A stretch of 64,000 nucleotides of DNA from Candidatus Parcubacteria bacterium (GCA_039795875.1 JBDKKY010000001.1:750-64749), one strand, 5' to 3'. Shown: positions 3,656 to 63,511, numbered from the stretch's first letter. Numbers and translations are program-made. The notes: generated by a model from the sequence alone, not told the origin.

Positions 3656-6364
3656 CTAGTCTACATCTTCAACCAGAGCCTTGACAGTGTGAGAGCTCTT
3701 GATCTTGCTCTTATGTCCCGCTGATTTGATTTCAAATTTCATTTCATTGTTCTTATCCATGTCGATAACCACCCTCGCTCCACTTTTTATACCTTCAGTG
3801 ATCATCATAGACGCCAACGGTGTCAACACCTTAGTCTGAATCAATCGTCGAAGCGGTCGCGCTCCATATTGAGGGTTGTATCCTTCTTTGGCTAGATACT
3901 CATACACTGGATCTTTAAGTTCCAGAGTAATCTCTTTCTCAGTCAATCGAGCTTGAACTTTCTTAACTTCAATATCGACGATCTTACGTATGGCTTCTGG
4001 TTTCAAGACGTCGAACAGAATGATCTCATCAAGTCGGTTCAAGAATTCTGGTCGGAAATAATCTTTGAGACTTTCCATAACTTTTTCTTTAACATCATCG
4101 TATGATTGAGAGTCATCATTTGAAGTTGAGAAACCAATATTTTTCATCTTATCGATGTATTGAGCACCAATGTTCGAGGTCATGATAATGATTGTATTTT
4201 TAAAATTCACTGTTCGGCCTTTTGAATCAGTCAATCGTCCGTTATCAAGGACTTGCAAAAGAATATTGAAAATATCTGGGTGAGCTTTTTCAATCTCATC
4301 AAAGAGAATCACTGAGTACGGTCGGTGTTTTACTTTATCAACCAAGTTTCCAGATGTATCATCGTGACCAACATAACCTGGAGGTGCTCCGATAATCTTA
4401 GAGACTGAATGTCTCTCGGCAAATTCAGACATATCAACTCGGATCAATGATTTTTCATTTTCAAACATAAAGTCAGCCAAAGCTTTAGTAAGCTCTGTCT
4501 TTCCTACTCCGGTTGGTCCAAGAAAAATGAACGAGCCAATAGGTCGGAGGGGATCGTGAATACCAACCCGTGATCGTTTGATAGTATCAGAAACTTTTTT
4601 AACCGCCTCATCTTGCCCAACAACTTGGGCTTTAAGAACTTCTTCCATGCGTCCAAGTTTTTTAACCTCTTCTTCAAGCATACGGGTTACAGGAACTCCG
4701 GTCCATCGCGCAACAACCTGAGCGATATCTGCCTCGTTGATCTCTTCTTTCAGAACTCGTTTATTGCTGTCCATTTTTCGAAGTTTCTTCAATCGAGCCT
4801 CTAGGTCTTTTTCCAACATTGGCAATTTGCCATAACGAATCTCAGCCGCTTTTCCAAGATCAGCACGTGCTTCCGCACGCTCCGCCTCTTGCCGAAGAGT
4901 TTCTAGATTTTTCTTAATCTCTTTGATGCTATTCAAAGCATCTCGTTCTGACTGCCATTTGGCCTCTGTATCTTTGATGCCATCTTTGACATCAGCAATA
5001 TTTAACTCTAGTTCCTTGATACGCTCTTTAGTGGCTTTATTTTCAGGATCTTTGAGCAATGCCTCTCGTTCGATCTCTAGGCGCATGATCTTTCGATGCG
5101 CGTCTTCAACCGCCTGTGGTTTATTTTCCAAAGAAATCTTAAGAGATGAGGCCGCTTCATCGATCAGGTCAACGGCTTTATCTGGCAATTGTCTATCCGT
5201 AATATATCGTGCGGAAAGTGATACCGCTGCAACAATAGCTTCATCGAGTATTCGTACACCGTGGAACAATTCGTATTTGTCTTTCAATCCTCGCAAAATC
5301 GCTGTTGCATCTTCCAATGTTGGCTCCTGAACATACACAGGTTGAAAACGTCTCTGCAGGGCAGGATCTTTTTCGATGTGTTTTTGATATTCTCGTAGAG
5401 TGGTCGCACCGATAGCGCGAAGCTCTCCGCGTGCCAGTGCAGGCTTCAACATATTTGAAGCATCAAGAGATCCTTCTGTTCCACCAGCACCCATGATGGT
5501 GTGTGTCTCATCGATAAACATGATGATCTTACCGTCGGCCTTCTCAACTTCTTTTAAAATATTTTTTAAGCGATCTTCGAATTCTCCTCGATACTTAGTG
5601 CCTGCAACCAGCGACCCCATATCAAGTGACAACAGTTCTTTGTCCTTCAATGATTCTGGAATATCCCCCATGGCGATACGATTGGCCAATCCTTCGACAA
5701 TGGCTGTTTTACCGACTCCAGCTTCTCCAAGAAGTATCGGATTATTTTTTGTTCGCCGTGAAAGGATCTGAATCACTCGTGAGATCTCTGCATCTCGTCC
5801 GATCACTGGATCAAGTTTGTGCTCACGTGCAAGTGCAGTTAAGTTTCGGGTATATTTTGTTAAAACTTTGGCTTTCTTTGCATCTGTTTGTTGACCACCA
5901 GACGTACCGTTAGTTTTTTGAGATTTGATCAATTCCAAAGTCTCAATACATTTTTCTTTATCAATTTTAAATTTCTCGATCAATTCTCGTCCAGGATTGA
6001 GCGAGTCAAAAAAGGCAATGAAGAGATGCTCCACTGAAACAAAGTTGTCTTTTACTAAAGCTGAGACGGCACCTGAGGCTTCGATGATCGCAGCAAGTTC
6101 TGGTGTTAGGAAAAGTTGATACGCCGGGCTCAGTGTGTTTGAGGCCTCAGTTGAATCGATGGCTTCGAAAGCGTTGTCGGCCATCAAGATAAAATCAACC
6201 TCCATCTTTTCAAGCAGAGTGGTAACCAGAGTGTCTTCTTGGGTCAAGAGTGAGGCTAGGAGGTGCATTGGCTGGACATTTGTTTGTCCTCGTTCTATGG
6301 CCAATTCGTGGGCTCGACGAATAGCCTCCTTGGCTCTCGTAGTGAAGTGATTTAAGGGTAACAT
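3656..6364 (-). CDS. clpB: ATP-dependent chaperone ClpB (Hsp100)
   Basis: 902 aa; Clp N domain, two AAA+ modules ([15 protein letters not shown] and [15 protein letters not shown] Walker A motifs) and a long middle coiled coil. Confidence 0.95.
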
Positions 6365-6455
6365 ATAAGGAGTATAGCATAGCTGTCAATCCTTGATAAT
6401 AGCAGATCATTTCTTCATAAAGTCTTAATTTAAGGGATATTTTGAGTGGTCTGAC

Positions 6456-6484
6456 TTGACATCGCCTATTAAGATTGTCATACT
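6456..6484 (+). promoter_or_regulatory. sigma70-like promoter (TTGACA-17 nt-CATACT)
   Basis: consensus -35 TTGACA at 6456; placed upstream of the GC-rich small ORF. Confidence 0.4.
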
Positions 6485-6534
6485 TTAGACCACCCCTTCA
6501 TCCCCGCACTTTTAACCCTCCACTCTCCAAAAAT

Positions 6535-6759
6535 ATGCCCATGAATCCTATCACTCGCCGTATCCGAGTGAGACGCGGTCGTCGTCAACTTAAACACTGG
6601 ACCCCACGGGTCGCAGTCGGTCTAGCTCTCGGCATCGCTCTCGCCTTTTGCCTAGATTCAATTCAAGGCATGCGACTACTCACACCGGTCTACTGGACCA
6701 TCTCGGGAATACTCCTGCTCGTCGCGATCGGGCATGATATCCGCCGGTATCGCAAATAA
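6535..6759 (+). CDS. small basic two-TM membrane protein in a GC-rich cassette
   Basis: track ORF 6475..6759 overlaps the promoter; the internal Met MPMNPITRR is the likelier start; about 55% GC against a 40% baseline. Confidence 0.4.
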   Translation: MPMNPITRRIRVRRGRRQLKHWTPRVAVGLALGIALAFCLDSIQGMRLLTPVYWTISGILLLVAIGHDIRRYRK

Positions 6760-6782
6760 CACAGAGAAGGCTCTCTGCCCAA

Positions 6783-6823
6783 ACTCCCGGACCCAAACAT
6801 TGGTCCGCGGAGTTTATTTTTTT
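6783..6823. terminator. intrinsic terminator (GC-rich hairpin plus T-run)
   Basis: CTCCCGGACC-caaacatt-GGTCCGCGGAG followed by TTTATTTTTTTA; lies between the convergent small ORF and iscS. Confidence 0.6.
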
Positions 6824-8007
6824 ATAATTTTTCCTAGTACTTTTATAAATGTCTCCACATGCCGCTTAGTTGTTCCTCTTCCCATACTGATTCGTAGTGA
6901 CGATCCACCACATTCATTACCTAATGCATCCACAACATATGAACGTGAGTCCTCTTGTTTGTTTTGACAAGTTGTTCCAGTTGATAATTCAATACCAGCT
7001 ACATCAAATTTAAATAATAAAAATTCTGCATCTAGTCCTGGCAAACAAATATTTACATTGTTTGAAATTCTTTTATCGGGATCCATAGTGCCATTGATAG
7101 ACACACTTTCTGGTAAATTTTTCTTTATATATTCTTGAAAACTTCTCAAGCGATTATTTTCTTTTTCTTTATCCGCATGTACGAGTCGCAAAGCGGCAGC
7201 AAAACCAACAATACCAGGTAGATTTTCAGTTCCTGGCCGTAGATCAGACTCTTGAGCGCCGCCGAAAAATATCTTATGTATAGGAGTATTTCTCTTGATA
7301 TATAGACATCCTGTGCCTCGAGGACCGTATATCTTACCACCATCAAGCGTCAGCAGGTCAACACCCATCTTGTCAATCTGCATGTCAATATAGTTGGGCG
7401 CCTGACAGGCATCAGTATGAAAAATAGGATAGACACCACCCTGTTCTTTCCTGTATTTTCGAATCAAACTAGCGATCTCGGAGATTGGTTGAATAGTACC
7501 CAATTCGTTGTTAACCAACATGACAGAAACCAAAGCAATATTTTTGTGAGTTTGGAGGATTTCTTTAAGTTCTTTTAAGTCGACTAGGCCATCGGCGTCA
7601 ACTCCGACAAAACTGGCTGTGATTTTACTTTCTTTGATCAGATTCTCTACCAGCTTCTTTACTGAAGGATGTTCGATAGCTGTTGTGACTATATGAGGTA
7701 ATCCTACACCTTTCCAGGCCTTAAGTACCCCTTGAATCGCCATGTTGTTTGATTCGGTACCACCACCTGTGAAAATAATCTCATCAGAGTGAACGCTGTT
7801 GGCAGAAACACCAGAAAGGATAGCCGAAACATCCTTTCTCGACTTTTCTAGGTACTTACTAGCCTGAACCCCTGCGTCATATAAAGATGATGGATTATGC
7901 CAATGACTTTTCAAGATTTTGTTCATGATCTTGACCACCCTCAAATCTACCGGTGTAATAGCGGCATAATCGAGGTAAATCTTTTGGCCAAAAATCCTTG
8001 AAAACAT
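6814..8007 (-). CDS. iscS: cysteine desulfurase (class V aminotransferase, IscS/NifS-like)
   Basis: N-terminal IYLDYAAITPV, SNNMAIQG, TTAIEHPSV, PLP-lysine region HTDACQA; 397 aa. Confidence 0.9.
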   Translation of the reverse strand: MFSRIFGQKIYLDYAAITPVDLRVVKIMNKILKSHWHNPSSLYDAGVQASKYLEKSRKDVSAILSGVSANSVHSDEIIFTGGGTESNNMAIQGVLKAWKGVGLPHIVTTAIEHPSVKKLVENLIKESKITASFVGVDADGLVDLKELKEILQTHKNIALVSVMLVNNELGTIQPISEIASLIRKYRKEQGGVYPIFHTDACQAPNYIDMQIDKMGVDLLTLDGGKIYGPRGTGCLYIKRNTPIHKIFFGGAQESDLRPGTENLPGIVGFAAALRLVHADKEKENNRLRSFQEYIKKNLPESVSINGTMDPDKRISNNVNICLPGLDAEFLLFKFDVAGIELSTGTTCQNKQEDSRSYVVDALGNECGGSSLRISMGRGTTKRHVETFIKVLGKIIKK

Positions 8008-8023
8008 TGTATTTTCCTAAAAA

Positions 8024-10333
8024 ATGTGTATATTTACTTATAACATGGCTATCAAGAAAAACCTACAAAATACCCCTGATGAACAGGTGCCATCTGACGA
8101 TCATAAAGATGATACGGAGGACACTTTTGGTGGTGCCTTTGGAGGAGCTTTCGGCGGAGCCTTTGGAGGTGGTTTTGAAGTCAAATTTAACAGTGATGGC
8201 TCTACTTCTAAGGTGAAAAAGCAGAAAGATGAGGTAGCAGACAAGAAAGACGTCCCTCTTCGATCCTCTTCTCGAACTTTTACTGTGCAGACCGAAGCTC
8301 CAGTTATTCCAGCCAAAAAGACAGAAACCAAACAAGACGCATGGATGGACGAGATCGCCCGCTCATATGAAAAACGCACCAAAGTGGCTGAATCAACACC
8401 CGCAGTTGTTACTCCCCCAGTTCAAGCACCGGTCCACACATTTGTTGCTCCAACTCCTTTTCGATCAAAGATCTTAACAGTTGAAGAGAAAAAAGCTTTG
8501 AAAGCCAAAGAGGAGGCAAGTAAAAACACTCCCCCTGTCACCGCTCAATCAACTGATACTGACCGAGGCACAGCCTTTGCCAAAACATTTTTAAAAAAAC
8601 CAGGAGAGGTGGGTGCTGGTTTCCGAAAACCACTCAGTCCGTTTTCTCGACCGTTTCAACGACCTGACAATCGCGGACCACAAAGTGGTGGTGGATATTT
8701 TAAACGAACACCACGAGTAAAAGTTAAAAATGCTCCCACACTCAAAACTCGAGTCAGTGGAAAATCTTCTCAGAACAAACTAGAGCTAGTGAAAAATCAC
8801 AACGCTGATATCACTCGTCGCGCACCAGTGATCGCTATCATGGGTCACGTCGATCATGGTAAATCAACATTGTTGGATTACATTCGAAAATCAAATACCG
8901 TTGACCGCGAAGTTGGAGGAATCACTCAAAAGATGTCTGCCTACGAAGTGGAGCACAATGGACAAAAGATTACTTTCCTTGATACACCCGGTCACGAAGC
9001 ATTTACCAGCATGCGAGCCCGTGGAGCTAGTGCAGCCGATATTGCGATCTTGATCGTTTCAGCCGAAGACGGTGTAAAACCACAGACTCTTGATGCCTTG
9101 AAAGCAATCACAGATGCCAAGGTTCCCTACTTTATTGGTGCAAGTAAGATTGATAGACCTGGAGCTGATATTGAGAAAGCAAAACAATCTCTAGCAGAAA
9201 ACAGTGTATTCGTAGAAGGATACGGTGGTGATATTTCCATTGTACCTTTCTCAGGAAAAACTGGCGAAGGGATTGATGATTTGCTTGATATGATTCTCTT
9301 GATGGCCGATGTCGCCGATATCAGCGCGGCTCTTGATGTGCCAGCTGAATGTTTGGTCATCGAAGCCAGTCGAGATAAAGTACGAGGTATCCAGGCGACA
9401 TTGATTGTAAAAAATGGAACACTAAAAACTGGTGCTTTTATTATTTCTGGTGGCGAGGTGTCACCGATCCGAAGTATTGAAAATGCAGAAGGTAAGCAGA
9501 TCAAATCTGCCCTTCCAGGACAACCTGTACGAGTCATGGGTTGGATCGCCGAACCTCGCGTTGGAGATATGTGTGTCATGGCAGCAGATAAAGCTATGGC
9601 TGAATTGATCGCTGCAGAACAAAAATCAATACAAGATCTAGCCAAAGAGATGGATGGCACCCCTGTTGAAAAGAAGGGCGGTATTCCTGTAAACATCCGC
9701 GTACTCTATGGTCTTGATAAAGATGATACTTGGACTCTTCCTGTTGTACTGAAAGCAGACAGCGTTGGAACCCTTGATGCTTTGAAGCAAGAGATTGGGA
9801 AAATAAAATTGGAGCGAATCAATATCCGAGTGATCCGTGCTGAGACTGGAGACATCAATGAAAATGATATCAAACTTGCTCAAGGCAGTAATGATTCAGT
9901 TGTACTTGGATACAATACGAAGATCGACGCCGGTGCTCGACGGCTGGCTGAAGCCACAAAAACAACTGTCGAGACATTTGATATTATTTATAAACTGATC
10001 GAATGGACGACAGAGGAGGCGCAAAAACGAGCACCGAAAGTCCGAAACGAAGAATCTCACTCTACTCTCAAAGTACTGAAAGTGTTTAGTGCAAATAAAC
10101 ACAAACAAGTTCTTGGAGGACGAGTAGAGACAGGTACGCTATCACTTGGTAACACGGTCAAGATCTTACGACGAGAAAATGAAATCGGACGCGGTGAAGT
10201 TGTTGAGCTACAACAAATGCGTGTTGCAACGAAAACTGTCGAGGCTGGTGCTGAGTGTGGATTGATGGTTGAATCAAAGATCGAAATCGTCGCGGGTGAC
10301 GTTCTATCAGCTGTATCATTTATAGAAAGATAA
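8024..10333 (+). CDS. infB: translation initiation factor IF-2
   Basis: G domain [25 protein letters not shown], canonical domain order; N-terminal [16 protein letters not shown] repeat; alternative start at 8045 (MAIKK). Confidence 0.95.
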
Positions 10334-10803: not shown

Positions 10804-10886
10804 GCCTTGGTGGTGGAATGGTAGACACGAGAGACTTAAAATCTCTTGGTAGCAATACCGTGCGGGTTCGAGTCCCGCCCTCGGCA
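10804..10886 (+). tRNA. tRNA-Leu (TAA), long variable arm
   Basis: GCCTTGGTGGTGGAATGGTAGACACG 5' half typical of tRNA-Leu, anticodon arm AGAGA-CTTAAAA-TCTCT, long variable arm, T-arm GCGGG-TTCGAGT-CCCGC. Confidence 0.8.
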
Positions 10887-10890
10887 CAAT

Positions 10891-10930
10891 AAACATAAAA
10901 GCATCCTTCGGGGTGCTTTTATGTTTATTG
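10891..10930 (+). terminator. intrinsic terminator after tRNA-Leu
   Basis: near-perfect hairpin AAACATAAAAGCATCC-TTCG-GGGTGCTTTTATGTTT with a TTCG tetraloop and U-rich tail. Confidence 0.75.
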
Positions 10931-11076
10931 CCAGAGGGACGGGACGAGAAAGCCGGAACCCTGTTGCCATGTCCCAACGGGACGGCAACAAGTGAGGCGG
11001 GGCTGCGCAAAAATTGCGCAGCAATTTTATGTGTAGCCGAGCCCCTCCCTAGCCTTGTAAGGGTCGAGTCCCACCA

Positions 11077-11105
11077 TTGACTCCTCGAACTACTAGTTAT
11101 ATAAT
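11077..11105 (+). promoter_or_regulatory. consensus sigma70 promoter TTGACT-17 nt-TATAAT
   Basis: exact -35 and -10 consensus with a 17-nt spacer, inside the GC-rich island. Confidence 0.5.
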
Positions 11106-11129
11106 ACCGATGGGCACGTGCCCCTACCT

Positions 11130-11276
11130 ATGAGACCCCTAACCGTCCTGTTCTTCCTCGCCCTTATCTGGACCGTCAACCGACACAACAACTCCAGCAA
11201 AAAGAGCCATCCGCCTACTGTAACCACCGAAACAGTAACGGCAGGAGCATCCATCCCCAACCCTGATCAGAAATAA
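11130..11276 (+). CDS. putative 48-aa single-TM peptide
   Basis: hand-translated MRPLTVLFFLALIWTVNRHNNSSKKSHPPTVTTETVTAGASIPNPDQK; downstream of the consensus promoter; GC-rich. Confidence 0.25.
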   Translation: MRPLTVLFFLALIWTVNRHNNSSKKSHPPTVTTETVTAGASIPNPDQK

Positions 11277-11472
11277 CACTGGTCAGAACCTTCCATCACC
11301 TGCAGCCTTGCTGCATGAGTGATTGGGAGGATTTTTTTTATTTGGGCCTTATTTTAAAAGATTATTTACCCTTTTAATCTCACTCGAGTCCTTGACTTTT
11401 ATACATATATATTATAGGATGATACACGAGCTTATTTGAAGGCTTTAAACCTTCCAGAACCATAAGCTCACC

Positions 11473-11739
11473 TTGAAAACGCAAAAAATGAACACCAACC
11501 GCATCGCAATTGGGCTTTGTCTGCTCGGAGCGATTGGCGTCCTTCATTGGGCCGCCACTCATCCAGCCGATAAAGCATCACCGGACACGGCCGTCACCAC
11601 GACATCTGCGCCCAAAAAAACCAAAACCCATAACCCGGGAGTCGTAGCGCAGCTGGAGGGTCACGCCTCCTTCAACCAAACTGCCCCCACAAAACTCGAA
11701 GTCAAACCCGAAATCACCATCCACCCCATCTCCCAGTAA
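11473..11739 (+). CDS. small secreted protein (signal peptide) in the GC-rich island
   Basis: 88 aa; N-terminal hydrophobic segment IAIGLCLLGAIGVL; about 58% GC. Confidence 0.45.
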   Translation: MKTQKMNTNRIAIGLCLLGAIGVLHWAATHPADKASPDTAVTTTSAPKKTKTHNPGVVAQLEGHASFNQTAPTKLEVKPEITIHPISQ

Positions 11740-11742
11740 AAC

Positions 11743-12949
11743 ATGAAAACCATCCTACACTTCTTCATCCTGCTCATCCTCATCACCACCAGCTTCGGCC
11801 AGGTCATCCCCGGCGCCGCACCACCGGTGCCGGCCGGGTTCCCTGCACAAATCCCAGCCTCCTTCGAGGAGGCATGGGACGCAGCGATCACCCGCTCCAC
11901 GACCTACCGTCGCCACATCGGCAGCAACCCTGGCGGTGAAGGTGAGCTGACAGTCATCGGTGGTGGTGCACAGAATCTCGTCGCCATCCTCACTACGCCA
12001 GGAACAATGGACACCATCGACAATGCGACAACGCTCGACAACGCGTACTTCCGGTTGGCCGACGAAAGGACAACCGTGTACGTCTCACGCACCATCACCG
12101 ATGGCGACGGGTTCAGTACGTTCGAATCGTACAGCTCGTTCCAGTTGGAAAAAATCGAGGGACCGGTCGTTATCGGACAGCCCGTCCTGTCACAGCCCAC
12201 GTATCGCATCCCGGAATGGGCCCGGGCAGTCGGATACAACCTGTCCTACTATACGCCTATCCCCTTGCCGGACAATGTGAACAATGCCGAGGTCATCACG
12301 TATGATCCAGAGCGCCCCTGGCACGTCGAAACACATGAGATGCCCATCATCCGGCACGGAGCCAAGACGTTCGTGATGATGGAAAATTGGATCTACGGAG
12401 ATCCAGAACTGCTGAAAAACTCAGTTCTGGTCATCCATACAGACACGGATCCTGTTCGCTACGACTTCGGAGATGGCGGACAGATCTCGAAGCGCCGGAC
12501 CTCTCCGGTTGGCATCGCACCGACTCGCGTCGAATGGAATGGCGGAAAAAAAAATCCGCATCCCTTACACGACCGGGGAACTGGCCCCAGTTGAAGAAAC
12601 TATCTTTCGCTACGGCGAAGAAGGTCAGTTCCTCGAAAACGTCGTGTATGACATCGCCATGACCAACGCGCCGGCAAACAGCTTCAAGATCTTGAGGTTT
12701 CGTGTGCTCGGTCAGTGGGGCAACGGCGGTGTAGCACCTACCGCGCTCCGCATCGTCACCCGCAACAGTGCAGGTGTGGTGGTCGAGAATGCCACGGAAC
12801 CGTTGAGTATCAACTCGGACCTCTGGTTCCGGGTCATCCTACGCAGTAGCGCATCATCCTGCCGCGTCTGGGCTATCTGGCCCGACGGCATCACAACCAC
12901 CAACGGCCAACAGTATGGCCGTCCGACCATGACGGAGAAAGGAAACTAA
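11743..12949 (+). pseudogene. secreted protein gene broken by a frameshift at an A9 tract (track ORFs 11743..12594 and 12473..12949)
   Basis: signal peptide MKTILHFFILLILITTSFG; frames join exactly at GGCGG-AAAAAAAAA-TCCGC (12546-12554); removing one A gives a continuous ~402-aa ORF (...VEWNGGKK|IRIPYTTGELAPVEE...). Confidence 0.5.
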
Positions 12950-12989
12950 CCCTCCGTCATATCCAACCCGAACTTTTAACCCCTAACCA

Positions 12990-13033
12990 CCCGCTCGCAC
13001 AGACCCAACTGTGCGCGCGGGATTTTTTATTTA
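12990..13033 (+). terminator. intrinsic terminator ending the GC-rich island
   Basis: CCCGCTCGCACAG-acccaa-CTGTGCGCGCGGG then ATTTTTTATTTA. Confidence 0.7.
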
Positions 13034-13036
13034 TAT

Positions 13037-13480: not shown

Positions 13481-13487
13481 AAATCTA

Positions 13488-14651
13488 TTATAGCAATTTT
13501 TGATATACCTCCTCTATCCTATCCACCATGTGTCGCAAGGTAAACTTTTCTGGAAACGAAGATTTACTCAATGTCATCTTTCTGATCTTCTTAGCATTTA
13601 AAAAATCTATAATCTTTTCTGTTAAAAACTTGGCGGAACCTGGAGGCACCAACGGTGCAGCAGCGTATTGCTCGATCTCCGGGATACCACCAACCCGTGT
13701 AGCGATAAAGGGAACTTTAGCCAACATCATCTCAAGTAGGGCATATGGAAAACCTTCTTTAACAGACGGCATGACAAATAGATCAAACGCTTTGGCATAT
13801 CGATATGCATCAGGGATAGCTCCAACTAAAAAGAATATTGTTCCGAGATCCAATTCTTTGATCTGTTGTTCTAATTCTTGCCGCAATTCACCTTCACCAA
13901 TCACTACAAAGATAGTATTGTCCAGACCTTTGTATCGTCGTGCCAGATATGCTGCTTGTATCAGATGCGTCACACCTTTGGCCGAATACAGATTGGCCAC
14001 CAGTCCAATCATACGCACAGTCTGTGGCAAAGCGATTCCCATTTTTCTATATATCACTTCTCGAGCGTCGTTCCGCTCCAAAATCTTATCAACATTTTGC
14101 TCATTGATTCCATTGTAAATAACGGCACCTTTTTTCTTTGGAATAATGTGCATGTGCCGACCAACATCAAAATCGAATTTGGAAACGGTGATTGTAAAAT
14201 TTCTAAAGAAGCGTGAAATAAACTCTGACAGAATATAAAAATATCTTTTCAGTTTCGACATCGGTTCTGTGAAAACAAAACCATGAACTGTATAGACAAC
14301 CTTGGCCCCAGCTAATTTGGCAGCAACAGCGCAGACCGAACCAGCCTTAGAACTATGCAGATGTACAATCTCGGGACGAATCGATCTGACCAACTTAATT
14401 GTTTCTAAACCAGCTTTGATATCTCTCCAAAAACTAACAGAACGACTCAGATTTTTAATCATTCGCAATTGGTGGCCTTGAAAACCGTGAACTTTCAGTT
14501 CTCCAAATAGCCAAGCATCTTGCGGACCTTCTTGAATCCCAGTCGCCACATACGTTTGATGTCCTTTGCTTTGTAGACCAACAATAACATCACGCACATG
14601 GGCTTGAGCTCCTCCCCTTTCACCTTGAGTAATGATATGAAGAATTTTCAT
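13488..14651 (-). CDS. glycosyltransferase family 4 (GT-B fold)
   Basis: N-terminal MKILHIITQGERGGAQAHV and a C-terminal EGFPYALLEMMLAKVPFIATRVGGIPE motif typical of GT4/RfaB-like enzymes. Confidence 0.8.
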   Translation of the reverse strand: MKILHIITQGERGGAQAHVRDVIVGLQSKGHQTYVATGIQEGPQDAWLFGELKVHGFQGHQLRMIKNLSRSVSFWRDIKAGLETIKLVRSIRPEIVHLHSSKAGSVCAVAAKLAGAKVVYTVHGFVFTEPMSKLKRYFYILSEFISRFFRNFTITVSKFDFDVGRHMHIIPKKKGAVIYNGINEQNVDKILERNDAREVIYRKMGIALPQTVRMIGLVANLYSAKGVTHLIQAAYLARRYKGLDNTIFVVIGEGELRQELEQQIKELDLGTIFFLVGAIPDAYRYAKAFDLFVMPSVKEGFPYALLEMMLAKVPFIATRVGGIPEIEQYAAAPLVPPGSAKFLTEKIIDFLNAKKIRKMTLSKSSFPEKFTLRHMVDRIEEVYQKLL

Positions 14652-17646: not shown

Positions 17647-17674
17647 TTGACTTTAGTTCTAGATATGGTATAAT
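17647..17674 (+). promoter_or_regulatory. consensus sigma70 promoter TTGACT-16 nt-TATAAT
   Basis: textbook hexamers upstream of the GC-rich small ORF. Confidence 0.5.
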
Positions 17675-17737
17675 ATACACATAAGACTCAATTAGGCACA
17701 GTGCCTATTTCTTAAAATCACCAACCTACCCACGTAC

Positions 17738-18145
17738 ATGAAACCAAAAACCAATAAAGCCTACAATGTTCCCCTATGGATCTGCATACTCATAGCAGGC
17801 ATCCTATTGGCCGTCTATTCCATGAACACCTCTTGGCTCGGCGAAGGCGGACCCATCGTCGCCTGTCTCGCTCTCAGCGGATCCCTTATGTCAATCCTCT
17901 TCTTGTTCTTCGAATGGGACCGTCGGCGTGAGCCACTACCTAATCCAGAAAAGTTCAGGTTTACTTGGAGGCAATTCTATATTGACACCCCCACCCTGCA
18001 CCGACGCGCGACCCCGCCGTTGAATGCAGCGGCGGGGTTTTTATTTTATATATTTTCTAATGGCGATCCTCATATTGCCTCAAGATCTCGGCTCCTCTCT
18101 GAAGCCAAACAGCCTTGCCGGCCAAATCAGTACCTATTTTTCTAG
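17738..18145 (+). CDS. small two-TM membrane protein in a GC-rich cassette; 3' end uncertain
   Basis: 135-aa ORF; hydrophobic segments LWICILIAGILLAVY and IVACLALSGSLMSILFLFF; the ORF reads through a strong terminator at 18012-18047, so its C-terminus is doubtful. Confidence 0.35.
   Translation: MKPKTNKAYNVPLWICILIAGILLAVYSMNTSWLGEGGPIVACLALSGSLMSILFLFFEWDRRREPLPNPEKFRFTWRQFYIDTPTLHRRATPPLNAAAGFLFYIFSNGDPHIASRSRLLSEAKQPCRPNQYLFF
18012..18047 (+). terminator. intrinsic terminator
   Basis: CCCCGCCG-ttgaatgcag-CGGCGGGG followed by TTTTTATTTT. Confidence 0.7.
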
Positions 18146-19615: not shown

Positions 19616-19689
19616 GGTTTTGTTTGATTATATCATGCATATAACACAAAAGAGCCCTGTTATTGAGCTCTTTGTGGTGCGCGTAAGCG

Positions 19690-21280: not shown

Positions 21281-21340
21281 ATATGAATATCATTATACCA
21301 GCTCCATCCATATATGCGAGTCCTGATATAGAGTAGGTGA

Positions 21341-25364: not shown

Positions 25365-25370
25365 GTCATG

Positions 25371-25443
25371 TGCGCATGCTTGGGTTCGAACCAAGGACCT
25401 TTCGAGTATCAGTCGAATGCTCTACCAACTGAGCTACACGCGC
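25371..25443 (-). tRNA. tRNA-Ile (GAT)
   Basis: GCGCGTG acceptor, anticodon arm TTCGA-CTGATAC-TCGAA, T-arm CTTGG-TTCGAAC-CCAAG. Confidence 0.85.
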
Positions 25444-25669
25444 ATTATTCGTCTTCGTTCTCGGACCGCACGAAGCAGTCCTTCACTCATCCTCATAATG
25501 AAGAAGACAAGACATTCTCCGCGCTCCGACGCTTCACGATAGAAGCGCTGCGCGCATCGTCGTAAATGCCTACAGAGACGTGGACAATCTACAACGACGA
25601 ATAAACGATATTATACACAAAAACTGCCATTTGGCAATTTATTCTGATTTTAAATAGCTATTTTGGACC

Positions 25670-26272
25670 TTATTTAGCAACAGCTTTTTGTACGAAGAAC
25701 TTACCAGCGTCCTCCATTTCTGTCAAAGACTCACAGGCATTTGTTCCAGACAATCGGCCTGCATTTGTAGCAGTTGCCTTACCTCGTAGCTTAGGGTCAG
25801 ACTCTGTCGAACTTACAAGTTCACCCAATGAACCATATGTGTCAACTCGCTTCTTAATATACATCTCAACCGCAGTACGTGATTCTGCCCCACTGTCGGC
25901 AACAAAGACTTTGGTGTCTGATTTTGCGGGGAATGCCGGAGCTGACGCCGCATCTGTATACCAGGCAAATGTACATGAAGTATTTCTCTGTACTATGGCT
26001 GATCTACTATAATTACAAGCTGAACGCTCCATACATCCATCTCCACCTTGTCCTGGGACGTATCTACCTTGTCCTGGGACATATCCACCTTTTGTGACAT
26101 CACCTGATACAGCGCCTGCTGTAGGAGTTGTTGCAGTAGTAGGGTTATTTATCAATACTGCCTTAGTTGTGGCGGCTTGATTATCTTTATTGCTAATCGA
26201 TGTGCGTACACTGTAGACAATTGACGCTACAATAATTGCCAAAAGAACAACAATAGTTAATGTTTTTTTCAT
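25670..26272 (-). CDS. hypothetical signal-anchored secreted protein encoded in the 16S/tRNA-Ile spacer
   Basis: 200 aa; N-terminal TM LTIVVLLAIIVASIVY; contains a 21-nt tandem duplication encoding YVPGQG RYVPGQG. Confidence 0.5.
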   Translation of the reverse strand: MKKTLTIVVLLAIIVASIVYSVRTSISNKDNQAATTKAVLINNPTTATTPTAGAVSGDVTKGGYVPGQGRYVPGQGGDGCMERSACNYSRSAIVQRNTSCTFAWYTDAASAPAFPAKSDTKVFVADSGAESRTAVEMYIKKRVDTYGSLGELVSSTESDPKLRGKATATNAGRLSGTNACESLTEMEDAGKFFVQKAVAK

Positions 26273-26566
26273 ATACTAATATTGTATCACCTACTTCAAG
26301 AAAAAGAAAAAACCTTTATGAACATAATTCACACAGGTCTTTTCTCAACAAATAAGAATTTTCACAAATCAACGCTTGTTACAAGTTAAATAATTAAATC
26401 TATTATTTTGTTCTGTTTGGCCAGTCTTTCCTGGGGTCAAAATCTTTACGTGATTCCCACGCTCTAAATGCGACGAGTTAGAGTCTCGTTTATACAGTGC
26501 AAGCAAAGTATAAGAACGACCGCTATAAATTTTATACCCTCCCTAAAGAGGACATAAAACAGTTTT

Positions 26567-28110
<1,544 letters not shown>

Positions 28111-41349: not shown

Positions 41350-41724
41350 ATGACACTGGGATACACCGATGGAAAAACCAAAATCAAAATAATCTTTTTT
41401 ACATTATGTATCCTAGGTATTTGTGGTCTTACCGCCTATGAACTCCGAAAAGTACTCCGCGGGCCAAACATCGTCCTTACTTGCGGTCATTGTGACCACA
41501 TCACAAGCGATGCCAACACCTACACCCTAGAAGGTCAAACCTCCAATATATCCGAAATACACCTGGGAAATAAGAAGATATACATTAGCTCGAAAGGAGA
41601 GTTTGCTGAGACGGTCCTCCTTTATCCTGGCGAAAACATGCTTTCCCTACACGCTAAGGACAGATTTGGCAAAGAAGTCAAGAAAGATGTCATTGTATAC
41701 TATAAGGGTGAAGCTAAAAAGTAA
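41350..41724 (+). CDS. hypothetical small membrane-anchored protein
   Basis: 124 aa; TM IIFFTLCILGICGLTAY. Confidence 0.5.
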   Translation: MTLGYTDGKTKIKIIFFTLCILGICGLTAYELRKVLRGPNIVLTCGHCDHITSDANTYTLEGQTSNISEIHLGNKKIYISSKGEFAETVLLYPGENMLSLHAKDRFGKEVKKDVIVYYKGEAKK

Positions 41725-58000: not shown

Positions 58001-58291
58001 ATGGAAACAAACACTACACTACCCAATATACTCAAAAACACTCCCGAGCTTCCTGCTCACCGTTTCGGCTACCACACCATGGCCAGCAGATATGGAATCT
58101 CCTACCTCGATGTTTTCGCTACCACCGCCCGTCTTCAAGAGGGTGTTACTGTGGTTGGATGGCGTCGTGAAGGAGAAACTGCATTTATGGTTATGTTTGA
58201 AATGCCGGATGGACAAGAAGTGTTCTTCCACTACTCTGAAAAAATGTTTACTGTCGGACTAATGAAAGACGTCTTCGAGAACAGGAAGTGA
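58001..58291 (+). CDS. hypothetical protein (96 aa), first gene of a GC-richer three-gene block
   Basis: intact ORF, about 48-52% GC. Confidence 0.4.
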   Translation: METNTTLPNILKNTPELPAHRFGYHTMASRYGISYLDVFATTARLQEGVTVVGWRREGETAFMVMFEMPDGQEVFFHYSEKMFTVGLMKDVFENRK

Positions 58292-58388
58292 TACAACCCT
58301 GACGGTGGCCACGTGCTGCCGTTGGGGATTTATTTTGCATTTTTGATAAAGTCGTATAGTATACGAGCAAACAACCCCCCCATCATTC

Positions 58389-59024
58389 ATGGACCTTCCA
58401 ACAGCAATAATCCCAGCAATACAACTCACAGGCAAAGTCGAGTGGGTCGGACTCACCCCTCCACTTGGCAATTCAGCGGCAATCCCACGAAAGAGAATCG
58501 ATGTCTTTCAGGGTCAGGGAGTACAGTACGACAAGCATTGGGGCACACGGACTCTGGATGTGCGCGATGAAGTAGCCCAAGCATTCGGGCTGAAAAAAGG
58601 GCTCGAATGCTTCAACATGCGGCAGTGGAGTGCAGTTTCTGCAGAAGAGGTCGCCTTGATTGCCGCAGACATGGGCATACCCGACATCGAGTCTGGAGAC
58701 TTGGGTGAAAATCTGATCGTCTCGGGTATTCCGAATTTCACCTTGTTGCCACCCGGCACGCTGATTTTCTTCAAAGATGCACGGAAGGATACCCGGACCA
58801 CTATCCTGTGCGTCTATGCTGAGAATCAGCCATGCTACATCCCGGCCCAGATCATCCAAGCAAAAAACAAAGGGGTGCCTGGTTTGGTGGGAACATTTGA
58901 CTCCCACGCCCGCAATCGTCGTGGCCTCGTCGGTTGGACCATGTGTTCCGGCATCATTAAGCCCAATGATACTGTGATCGCCTACGTTCCCGCACAGCGT
59001 CCATACCTTGCTCAGATGGCTTGA
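58389..59024 (+). CDS. MOSC-domain protein
   Basis: GDLGENLIVSGI and surrounding beta-barrel pattern typical of MOSC (MOCO sulfurase C-terminal) domains. Confidence 0.6.
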   Translation: MDLPTAIIPAIQLTGKVEWVGLTPPLGNSAAIPRKRIDVFQGQGVQYDKHWGTRTLDVRDEVAQAFGLKKGLECFNMRQWSAVSAEEVALIAADMGIPDIESGDLGENLIVSGIPNFTLLPPGTLIFFKDARKDTRTTILCVYAENQPCYIPAQIIQAKNKGVPGLVGTFDSHARNRRGLVGWTMCSGIIKPNDTVIAYVPAQRPYLAQMA

Positions 59025-59210
59025 AGAGCCATATTACGAGAGCCGTCCAGGAAACTGGGCGGCGCTTTTTATACTAGACTTCCCAAACCCTCTCGGGTAT
59101 ATTTCGAGTAGAGCTTCGAATAGTTCGAGGCACTTGCAGGCCTAGAAAACCTGTATCACCAAACCCGTGGTTTTACGGTCCGCCGTTTCTCCACACAAGC
59201 ACATATAACA

Positions 59211-59852
59211 ATGCAAACAAATATAACATTAGGGATTCTGGTCCGCCAGACTCCACTAGCTGATACAGAGTGGGAAAAGATAATACTCGACCGACTGGAA
59301 CTGATCAAAGACGACTTACGCCGAATGCCTCTGGAAGTCCTAGGCGACAGGAAGATGCTCGTCGATCAGTTCGGTATCCACAGCCTCGCGACACATCCTT
59401 GTTCACGGGAGAGCGACGGAGATCTATCACTTACGACGAAGGTTATCTTCTCTGAAGAACACCACAGCGAGCATGTATACCCTGAACCAGGAACCAGCGA
59501 TGGGCACGCTATCTCAGCCATTCACAAATTCTGGGGCCTAACTCGCCTTGGAAGGTGGATTACCGTGGAGGTGCATACCATCTACCGCGATGAAGAATCG
59601 CACGCTGGATCCGGACGAATGAAAAAAGCACAAGTCGCGCAACAAGTTTACATTCGTTACTGCGACAACCTTCCCCAATTGTGCACCTTCTGTCACACAA
59701 CTCTACAAAGAGTCTGGAAAAGACTCGGAGAAGTTATCAAAGAGTGTGCTGCATACCGCAAAGGACTGTACGAGGAAGTCCAAGAATGGGCCACACGAGT
59801 CGAGCAAGAAGAAGAGCTGGTTGGGATGATTCCCAACCCTCCCAAGGAGTAA
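59211..59852 (+). CDS. hypothetical protein (213 aa), Cys/His-containing
   Basis: intact GC-rich ORF; no family recognised. Confidence 0.45.
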   Translation: MQTNITLGILVRQTPLADTEWEKIILDRLELIKDDLRRMPLEVLGDRKMLVDQFGIHSLATHPCSRESDGDLSLTTKVIFSEEHHSEHVYPEPGTSDGHAISAIHKFWGLTRLGRWITVEVHTIYRDEESHAGSGRMKKAQVAQQVYIRYCDNLPQLCTFCHTTLQRVWKRLGEVIKECAAYRKGLYEEVQEWATRVEQEEELVGMIPNPPKE

Positions 59853-59876
59853 TATATCACTCCGAAAAACATCCGT

Positions 59877-59908
59877 CCGCGCTGAAATATGCGCGGCGGT
59901 TTTTATTT
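59877..59908 (+). terminator. intrinsic terminator
   Basis: CCGCGC-tgaaatat-GCGCGG then CGGTTTTTATTTATTT. Confidence 0.7.
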
Positions 59909-62884: not shown

Positions 62885-63421
62885 TTAATCATAAATGTGA
62901 AACTCTGTATATATAGAATCGTTTATAAGTCGAATGGGAGAATCTTCCCTTGTAAAGTGTGTAATCTGAAACAGAAGATGACTTCCTGTCTTGGCTGGCG
63001 GAAAGGTTATTGCGATATCAACATGAGAATTTGCATTTATCTTGTATATAATAGGTCTCCTCCATTTATTACCATCTTTAGTTTCTCCGTGAATTTCAAA
63101 GGCATTTCGGTCAAGCGGTTTCATTTTTTGCTTATCTGTCTCCTCAAAAAAGACCTCTTCTGTTAGTACTTTTACCTTGAGCTCTGTCAGATTTAGGGAA
63201 TTATTTTTCTCGATGATTTTTAACTGGACCGAATATATGGGATAAGGATTATTATTGACGATTTGAATATTCCGGATTTCGGTAAAATTCTGTGGTTTTA
63301 TAACAATTTTATTCGGGACTACGTAGAGAGAATATCTCCATTCTCGAAATTTAGACGGCATATCGAGCGCAAAAAAAGTAATTAAACCTATAAAAATCAA
63401 AACTATAGCCATAAATGTCAT
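62885..63421 (-). CDS. hypothetical N-terminally anchored protein
   Basis: 178 aa; TM FMAIVLIFIGLITFFAL. Confidence 0.45.
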   Translation of the reverse strand: MTFMAIVLIFIGLITFFALDMPSKFREWRYSLYVVPNKIVIKPQNFTEIRNIQIVNNNPYPIYSVQLKIIEKNNSLNLTELKVKVLTEEVFFEETDKQKMKPLDRNAFEIHGETKDGNKWRRPIIYKINANSHVDIAITFPPAKTGSHLLFQITHFTREDSPIRLINDSIYTEFHIYD

Positions 63422-63424
63422 ATG

Positions 63425-63511
63425 CGGAGGATGTGAGATTCGAACTCACGGGGCAGTTTCCCACCCGACAGTTTAGTAAACTGTTGATTTAAACCACTCA
63501 TCCAATCCTCC
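63425..63511 (-). tRNA. class II (long variable arm) tRNA, Ser-like, with apparent anticodon ACT
   Basis: GGAGGAT/ATCCTCC acceptor, 3-bp D-stem, anticodon arm ACAGT-TTACTAA-ACTGT, long variable arm, T-arm GTGAG-TTCGAAT-CTCAC. Confidence 0.65.

Follow-up and report, generated by a model that had tools for sequence, protein, structure and literature searches.

What kind of gene occupies the GC-rich segment between clpB and an iscS-like gene in a 64-kb stretch of a Candidatus Parcubacteria genome? This segment, here called cassette A (positions 6456-6823), was first noticed in a sequence-only reading, which described three short GC-rich segments with a common architecture (promoter, small two-helix membrane protein, terminator) and took them for a dispersed family of acquired, toxin- or immunity-like genes or for remnants of a mobile element. 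We refer to the whole 64-kb stretch as the window, and all within-genome statements below cover these 64 kb. Our analysis points to a different answer: on the evidence of sequence comparison, cassette A is probably a hypervariable small membrane-protein gene that is restricted to its lineage, is transcribed autonomously and occupies a slot that is conserved yet variable. Its open reading frame (ORF A; MPMNPITRRIRVRRGRRQLKHWTPRVAVGLALGIALAFCLDSIQGMRLLTPVYWTISGILLLVAIGHDIRRYRK) is on record with its exact sequence as MEN9604325.1, 'hypothetical protein RJB39_10', from a 68-kb contig of a Candidatus Parcubacteria metagenome-assembled genome, and is annotated by both NCBI and JGI. As an independent assembly (L001; Logan assembly, SRR35181295) is 100% identical to the window across 7.5 kb, the segment is no assembly chimera.

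The proposal that cassette A is a unit of promoter, small membrane-protein ORF and terminator was borne out (coordinates in Table 1). The hexamers of its promoter (TTGACA-17-CATACT) scored 10 of 12 consensus matches in the promoter scan. The 44-nt leader is composed of 48% C and 2% G (a single G), is unpaired in the minimum-free-energy fold and hence predicted to be unstructured, and carries no Shine-Dalgarno (SD)-like motif between 6491 and 6534. The leader is thus SD-less, as had been described, but this is not distinctive of cassette A because just 3 of the 58 host genes of the window carry an SD-like motif. Many host genes have a TATAAT-like box ending 5-12 nt ahead of the ATG (e.g., 6365-6399, 13481-13510, 19616-19645 and 21281-21310; mostly minus-strand), which suggests that leaderless mRNAs dominate in this Parcubacteria genome. 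At the other end of the cassette, the terminator hairpin (-20.5 kcal/mol, z -5.2) is followed by UUUAUUUUUUU, and its T-run overlaps the last codons and the stop codon of the convergent iscS gene.

Protein A has an Arg-rich N-terminus, two hydrophobic windows and a basic C-terminal tail. AlphaFold2, run on the single sequence, returned helices at residues 5-20, 24-43 and 50-73 (pLDDT 68), the last two being hydrophobic; this is a generic three-helix model of modest confidence. According to the positive-inside rule, the protein would form a helical hairpin inserted in the cytoplasmic membrane, its two basic ends facing the cytoplasm. The second ATG of ORF A (6541) lines up with the start of the corresponding protein of the relatives, MNPI.

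Closer relatives were reached via the 90% cluster of RpsB and then via the relatives' own InfB and RbfA. They are L047/L051 (SRR30276816/17), L050 (SRR25168019) and L048 (GCA_964424465.1), and their proteins are 90-95% (ClpB), 70-78% (IscS) and 76-79% (glycosyltransferase) identical to those of the window; for L047/L051 and L050 the values are 90% for ClpB and 78% for IscS. The genes that flank the A slot differ by ~19-25% in DNA between these sister species and the window. The 90% clusters of IscS, ClpB and the antisense ORFs described below yielded no further relatives, and P0032/L053 was set aside because of its other genomic context. L047/L051 and L050 bear a cassette in the A slot, placed and oriented as in the window, within clpB-iscS spacers of 388 nt (49% GC) and 380 nt (45% GC), respectively. 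Its promoter has the identical -35 TTGACA and -10 TGGCATACT, separated by a 16-nt spacer of other sequence, and the leader is partly alignable to that of cassette A. The start is kept across the sister lineages (ATGAAYCCNATC), the relatives reading ATGAACCC(G/T)ATC where the window has ATGAATCCTATC at its second ATG. The slot of L047 and L050 encodes a 58-amino-acid (aa) ORF with two transmembrane (TM) segments, and a GC hairpin with ATTTATTTTT abuts the iscS stop, a position matching that of terminator A. In L048 the clpB-iscS spacer measures just 80 nt and the cassette is absent; the alignment of a 40-nt spacer remnant was not convincing, equal scores being reached by 66 of 500 shuffles against the window and by 17 of 500 against L047. 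These comparisons show, at the level of sequence, that the window unit is the positional orthologue of the 58-aa two-TM gene of the sister species. In more distant Parcubacteria (L003, L004 and L006; ClpB ~62% identical) the order infB / iscS / X / clpB is kept; as the X genes are unrelated and on the same strand, this synteny is uninformative on cassette A.

The pair L047/L050 gave access to selection on the reading frame, so that the figures that follow concern the positional orthologue; the only other copy of the window allele, in L001, is identical to it. The two 58-aa ORFs are both 177 nt long and have no indel, while the leader does have indels. Divergence at the three codon positions is 0.25, 0.14 and 0.44, with a non-synonymous divergence (dN) of 0.20, a synonymous divergence (dS) of 1.26 and a ratio (omega) of 0.16. 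The other frames gave omega values of 0.5 to 3.3, with the exception of the antisense frame that has the same wobble sites (0.2). The codon-position pattern, the omega value and the absence of indels indicate that the L047/L050 gene is translated and under purifying selection. Automatic annotation of the sister genomes places antisense ORFs over the 58-aa gene, at 8472-8765 (-) in L047 (97 aa) and at 8550-8744 (-) in L050 (64 aa). These calls lie in different relative frames and are not frame-conserved, and the frame of the L047 call has an omega of 3.3; judged from these data, both are spurious.

These coding data bear on a reading in which ORF A is incidental and the segment is a small RNA gene or a bidirectional terminator or insulator between iscS and clpB, its high GC reflecting structural RNA. 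GC-rich islands of AT-rich genomes are often RNA genes; the fold z of the segment is -3.6 on the minus strand and -2.2 on the plus strand, the length of the ORF is reached in shuffled sequence with p ~0.05, and the hairpin abuts the iscS stop. However, the folding signal is unremarkable once the terminator hairpins are excluded, and Rfam gave nothing at gathering score: in 6300-6900, with E up to 10 admitted, there were chance-level matches only (E 1.7 or worse). The codon periodicity, the omega value and the lack of ORF indels beside a leader that does have them also argue against it, as do a product that fits the positive-inside rule with two clean hydrophobic helices and a relative, L048, that manages with an 80-nt iscS-clpB spacer from which the segment is missing. 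We consider this reading very unlikely.

If cassette A is a small membrane-protein gene, how does it evolve? Between L047 and L050, nucleotide identity is 91.7% in clpB, 89.0% in iscS, 94.6% in the common upstream control region, 91% in the promoter and ~97% in the terminator hairpin, and drops to 72% in the small ORF. The 58-aa ORF is thus a local divergence peak, changing ~3 times faster than its flanks, and its dS is ~2.5 times that of the flanks (0.46-0.52). As far as the compared genomes go, these values show that the body of the ORF evolves several-fold faster than its surroundings while promoter, start codon and terminator are kept. At the larger distance that separates L047 from the window, identity in the upstream part is 64% and the ORF body is unalignable (nucleotide z -0.06; protein z ~2.4); the two proteins have only MNPI and a weak W-x-P-x-V-A motif in common. 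A frameshift relation between the window ORF and the 58-aa ORF was rejected, since the other frames were without similarity.

Conserved flanks around an unalignable body would also be expected if the slot were a promoter-terminator frame with turnover of its coding content, either because new ORFs arise de novo where sequence is poor in G and in stops or because recombination through the conserved flanks replaces alleles repeatedly; GC-biased conversion could then sustain the GC content. The excess dS of the A-slot ORF and the orphan status of all products speak for such turnover, and so does the slot of cassette D near rpsB: there the promoter region is kept, the ORFs of L046 and L047 are just 25-29% identical in amino acids between flanking proteins that are 96-99% identical, and L048 holds an unrelated soluble 151-aa ORF, adjoined by a Bro-N gene, ahead of a terminator near-identical in L046, L047 and L048 (that of the window differs). 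On the other side, an omega of 0.16 and equal lengths in L047 and L050 are what ordinary purifying selection on an established gene would give, and neither recombination breakpoints nor donor alleles were identified. Hyperdivergence and replacement look alike here because a threefold faster clock alone would erase similarity at the window-L047 distance, so that replacement is not needed. Turnover of this kind is in our view an improbable explanation.

Searches beyond this clade returned protein A itself and no other homologue. A word-prefiltered search of 5.8 billion cluster representatives and a full HMMER scan of 1.84 billion representatives each gave the self-match only, and there was no match in Pfam, PHROGs, NCBIfam, PADLOC or PDB. 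The one match in a genome collection (Angelobacter) proved to be an out-of-frame chance match in a VirB3/VirB4 type IV secretion region. The product of cassette D is an orphan as well. The names given by JGI, 'PrsW' for A and 'YbhN' for D, are not backed by any model match, and in the literature we found nothing specific to such cassettes in bacteria of the candidate phyla radiation (CPR). ORF A therefore has both marks of an orphan gene: (i) no homologue beyond a narrow clade and (ii) selection on the frame, the latter by way of the L047/L050 positional orthologue.

A small hydrophobic orphan of this kind might be a toxic membrane protein, i.e., a type I toxin, a holin-like pore former or a phage-exclusion or abortive-infection peptide, that is silenced or countered by antisense read-through from iscS. 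Its size, its two TM helices and its charged C-terminus are in keeping with those of class II holins and of many membrane toxins, convergent transcription past leaky, weak iscS terminators could yield an antisense RNA, and fast evolution is typical of conflict genes. Against this, no antisense promoter was predicted inside the cassette (no minus-strand promoter-like site within 6456-6823), the leader is unstructured where type I toxin mRNAs typically have a long folded 5' untranslated region (UTR), an endolysin gene and a phage context are both missing, PHROG and PADLOC models gave no match, and a near-consensus, constitutive-looking promoter is hard to square with a lethal product. A toxin is thus a doubtful candidate, and we return to an accessory membrane protein as the likelier product.

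Composition sets cassette A apart from its neighbours, as the sequence-only reading had noticed. GC content is 52.6% (GC skew -0.28) at 6451-6800, against 42.5% for the window. At codon position 3, C/(C+T) averages 0.34 +/- 0.06 (range 0.24-0.46) in a baseline of 32 host genes that includes plus-strand genes. It is 0.62 in ORF A (binomial p 1.5e-4), and this signature is common to the plus-strand units: across 14 plus-strand ORFs, 10 of them from the window and 4 from relatives, values range from 0.53 to 0.79, with 0.79 for ORF B, 0.74 for ORF C, 0.77 for ORF E, 0.71 for ORF D, 0.53-0.63 for the ORFs at 41350 and in the 58-60 kb block, and 0.61-0.77 for the slot ORFs of relatives (binomial p 4e-3 to 1e-28 against host genes). 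The C-richness is regional and not a matter of codon choice alone, as the untranslated regions are C-rich too. The direction of the skew (C>G and A>T on the coding strand) would be that predicted by replication asymmetry for weakly constrained lagging-strand DNA. Over a divergence of dS 0.5 or more, simple amelioration would be expected to have erased the excess GC, and no donor was detected; that high GC and C-rich third positions persist across species is a compositional anomaly.

Are the other GC-rich units of the window relatives of cassette A? The claim that there are three units of one architecture proved loose in both respects. More units exist, e.g., at 11077-11345 (cassette B) and in the block 58001-59852, which ends in a terminator similar to that of cassette D. 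In ORF C (11473/11488-11739) there is a single hydrophobic segment, at the N-terminus, and no terminator directly follows this ORF, which opens an operon of two genes (C-E). ORF D has no in-frame stop ahead of its own terminator (18010-18049) and continues to 18145, into the 3' end of a convergent 178-aa gene; it is either a non-stop or decaying gene or one that depends on terminator read-through. The hydrophobic cores, said to be alike, showed no significant resemblance: in Smith-Waterman comparisons of proteins A, C, D and E (BLOSUM62, 300 shuffles) the best pair, A-C, reached z 2.8 (5 of 300 shuffles) and the others z <1.

The C-E operon follows tRNA-Leu in every relative and is GC-rich there too, but it is only 37-51% identical, as compared to 76-79% for the adjacent glycosyltransferase. 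Gene E is split by an A9 run (12546-12554) into ORFs 11743-12594 and 12473-12949; with one A removed, the restored frame matches the 414-aa homologue of L039. The split may come from an error in sequencing, or it may mark a pseudogene or a phase-variable tract. A direct 12-nt copy of the tRNA-Leu 3' end (TCGAGTCCCGCC) stands at 11064-11075, right ahead of the -35 of cassette B, and an inverted copy at 10911-10950. In L039 and L048 a tRNA-Leu 3'-end copy with TTGACA directly drives gene C. These attachment-site (att)-like copies suggest an old site-specific integration, and the tRNA-Leu island is old, as all examined relatives have it in diverged form.

Presence and absence did vary among the slots, as anticipated by the sequence-only reading. 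Besides the missing cassette A of L048, cassette B is mostly deleted in L047/L052 and absent in L039 and L048, and L046 carries, at 8073-8572 (reverse), an extra 426-nt unit (promoter, 101-aa three-TM ORF, terminator) between prfA and a 193-aa gene. This unit is absent from L042 (8602-8675), although the flanking proteins are 96-99% identical.

Such variation, the atypical composition and codon choice of all units, the att-like copy ahead of the tRNA-Leu-linked ones and a layout like that of a phage moron are what one would expect if toxin- or immunity-like genes for small membrane proteins had been acquired horizontally and formed a dispersed family, or if the units were remnants of a mobile element. 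The links that would make the units a family were not found. The proteins are dissimilar, no direct or inverted repeat family joins the cassettes in the window, and blastn-short with 16 cassette segments in five genomes (the window and four relatives) gave no cross-slot match better than E ~0.1. A leader motif, CCTTCATCCC(C)GCA, seemingly common to cassette A and a cassette of L046, was below significance in that search. Neither an integrase nor a transposase occurs among the neighbours of A or in the syntenic blocks of the relatives, phage genes are lacking, and PHROG, PADLOC, Pfam and NCBIfam models gave no match. When the borders of A were compared with the empty site of L048, no direct or inverted repeats were seen by eye, the flanks of A not having been directly tested for repeats. 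Mobile-element remnants are also at odds with the presence of A at the same site in L047/L051 and L050, species ~20% diverged in DNA. The same observation goes against recent acquisition: of the features of a recent island, cassette A has the atypical composition, but of the close relatives only L048 lacks it at the site, and neither protein search found a donor-like homologue in very large databases. 'Acquired' may hold only for an old event or for ongoing allele exchange within the clade. The sequence-only reading would have been abandoned by its own terms had the proteins been dissimilar and each gene been at the same place in all relatives, with uniform composition; similarity is indeed lacking and most relatives keep the position, but the composition varies. 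Overall, we regard an acquired family or mobile-element remnants as an unlikely origin. Evolutionarily, the other GC-rich cassettes fall into one class with A (lineage-restricted, hypervariable, plus-strand, rich in C-ending codons), as independent genes that are neither paralogues of it nor copies of a mobile element.

The neighbours of cassette A in the window are clpB, the iscS-like gene, infB and rbfA. The cassette and clpB have a common 91-nt control region, and as the clpB -10 ends only 6 nt ahead of the clpB ATG (6364), the clpB mRNA is probably leaderless. About 85% of the long ORFs of the window are on the minus strand, which is probably the leading strand since the GC skew of the plus strand is steadily negative. 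The divergent genes iscS and infB are annotated with starts just 16 nt apart (8007-8024); unless infB has been given a wrong start, each promoter must lie within the opposite gene. Further away, a 16S rRNA gene (26568-28109, minus strand) is followed by tRNA-Ile (region 25370-28109), and no 23S or 5S rRNA gene was found in the window; the rRNA genes of this genome appear to be unlinked. ARAGORN placed a tRNA-Ser with anticodon ACT at 63424-63511 (minus strand; anticodon loop TTACTAA), whose unusual A34 seems to be real in the DNA, and an ORF at 62885-63421 begins 3 nt after this tRNA.

Table 1. Positions of cassette A, its flanking genes and the other GC-rich units (window coordinates unless a relative is named)
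Feature	Position	Strand	Description
clpB	3656..6364	-	Left boundary of the A slot, divergent from cassette A
Divergent clpB promoter	6371..6399	-	-35 TTATCA, 17-nt spacer, TG-extended -10 TATACT; conserved in L047, L050 and L048
Cassette A promoter	6456..6484	+	-35 TTGACA 6456-6461, 17-nt spacer, TG-extended -10 CATACT 6479-6484
Cassette A 5' leader (putative)	6491..6534	+	Start ~6491, placed from the -10 position
ORF A	6535..6759	+	74 aa; 72 aa if the start is the second ATG, 6541
Predicted TM helix 1 codons	6604..6663	+	~Residues 24-43; hydropathy windows and AlphaFold2 helix 24-43
Predicted TM helix 2 codons	6682..6735	+	~Residues 50-67, then basic tail HDIRRYRK; hydropathy and AlphaFold2
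Short 7-bp hairpin	6761..6778		Right after the ORF A stop; scores on the minus strand as a weak terminator-like site downstream of iscS
Cassette A intrinsic terminator	6781..6823	+	13-pair stem with one bulged base, 8-nt loop (6781-6815), then run TTTATTTTTTT (6813-6823)
Class-V aminotransferase / cysteine desulfurase, IscS-like	6814..8007	-	Right boundary of the A slot, convergent; PF00266, 7e-56
infB	8024-10333	+	Beyond iscS
tRNA-Leu 3'-end repeat regions	10865-11076; L047 12700-13160; L048 6660-6850		
Cassette B	11077..11345	+	TTGACT-17-TATAAT promoter, 48-aa ORF 11130-11276, terminator
C-E operon	11392..13035	+	Promoter, 83-aa signal-anchored protein 11488-11739, secreted ~400-aa protein 11743-12949, terminator
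Cassette D	17647..18049	+	TTGACT-16-TATAAT promoter, two-TM ORF from 17738, terminator 18010-18049 inside the ORF
D slot in relatives	L047 20793-21535; L046 9155-10000 (reverse); L048 14390-15185		One or two cassettes
GC-rich block	58001-59908 (58001-59852 GC-rich)	+	96-aa ORF, MOSC-domain protein 58389-59024, 213-aa ORF; C-ending codon preference

Several observations weigh against reading cassette A as an established, fast-evolving gene. (i) The length of ORF A argues only weakly for coding, as an ATG ORF as long or longer was present in 229 of 5000 dinucleotide shuffles. (ii) The evidence for selection comes from one sequence pair, L047/L050, with ~43 synonymous sites. (iii) It is by position, promoter, the first four codons and terminator that the window gene is orthologous to the 58-aa gene, and the body may have been replaced instead of having diverged. 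(iv) The layout differs, with an Arg-rich N-terminal helix and two TM segments in the window and an N-terminal TM segment plus one more in the relatives, and the function may therefore not be the same. (v) The raised GC and third-position C fit a foreign origin, and in-situ evolution under AT-biased mutation should have eroded both. With these points counted, the small membrane-protein gene remains the reading we favour. In it, a near-consensus sigma-70-type promoter would drive a leadered, SD-less mRNA of ~325 nt from the strand opposite nearly all housekeeping genes; the mRNA would encode a protein of 72-74 residues and end at the strong intrinsic terminator overlapping the iscS end. The product would serve as a small accessory protein of the membrane, in which hydrophobicity and charge count and the exact sequence is otherwise of little consequence. 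Such a component might be expected at those interfaces of an episymbiont (cell envelope, host or phage) that change rapidly.

A bolder version, which we put forward as a long shot, is that, in this Parcubacteria clade, conserved lagging-strand promoter-terminator slots hold hypervariable, G-depleted, GC-rich small membrane-protein genes whose content is renewed by a dedicated or locus-specific process. Candidate processes would be recombinational exchange of alleles or cassettes through the flanks with GC-biased conversion, head-on replication-transcription mutagenesis and de novo ORF birth. If true, the renewal process would keep the composition of the slots far from the AT-biased equilibrium of the genome, and the slots would amount to a chromosomal system that diversifies envelope proteins and has no recognisable machinery of a mobile element or retroelement.

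For annotation, cassette A means that a real gene is displaced by spurious antisense calls in the sister genomes, and small plus-strand genes of CPR bacteria are easily missed or mis-called. CPR bacteria probably live in attachment to hosts, with an envelope whose proteins are for the most part unknown; a set of small membrane and secreted proteins that evolve fast and are independently transcribed from fixed slots would provide candidate components of the host or phage interface. Otherwise, cassette A is an ordinary orphan gene, and neither a new mobile element nor a new toxin family.

How does cassette A compare with known systems? Phage morons are autonomous promoter-ORF-terminator units of atypical GC inserted between conserved genes, and cassette A is likewise a compact unit with a single ORF and deviant GC, set between conserved genes and present or absent among relatives. 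Unlike a moron, it does not lie in a prophage (its neighbours are clpB, iscS and infB), no cassette protein has a PHROG match, and it occupies the same site in ~20% diverged species. With type I toxin-antitoxin modules cassette A shares a small hydrophobic product, but it has neither a predicted antisense RNA gene nor a structured 5' UTR. Protein A resembles class II holins in being small, with two predicted TM helices and a charged C-terminus; however, no endolysin or lysis-cassette gene neighbours it, and no Pfam, PHROG, NCBIfam or PADLOC model matches it. The likeness to tRNA-linked genomic islands concerns the B and C-E units only: situated immediately after tRNA-Leu, they have raised GC and a direct, partial repeat of the tRNA 3' end, whereas cassette A has no tRNA or att-like repeat. 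Bacteria also have small membrane proteins of <100 aa, catalogued for instance in E. coli, whose role is that of an accessory or regulatory subunit. Protein A differs from them in that it has no sequence relation to any, that its context suggests no partner and that its composition is atypical; it is like them in size, in having one or two TM helices, in being encoded by a standalone gene and in its weak constraint beyond hydrophobicity and flanking charges.

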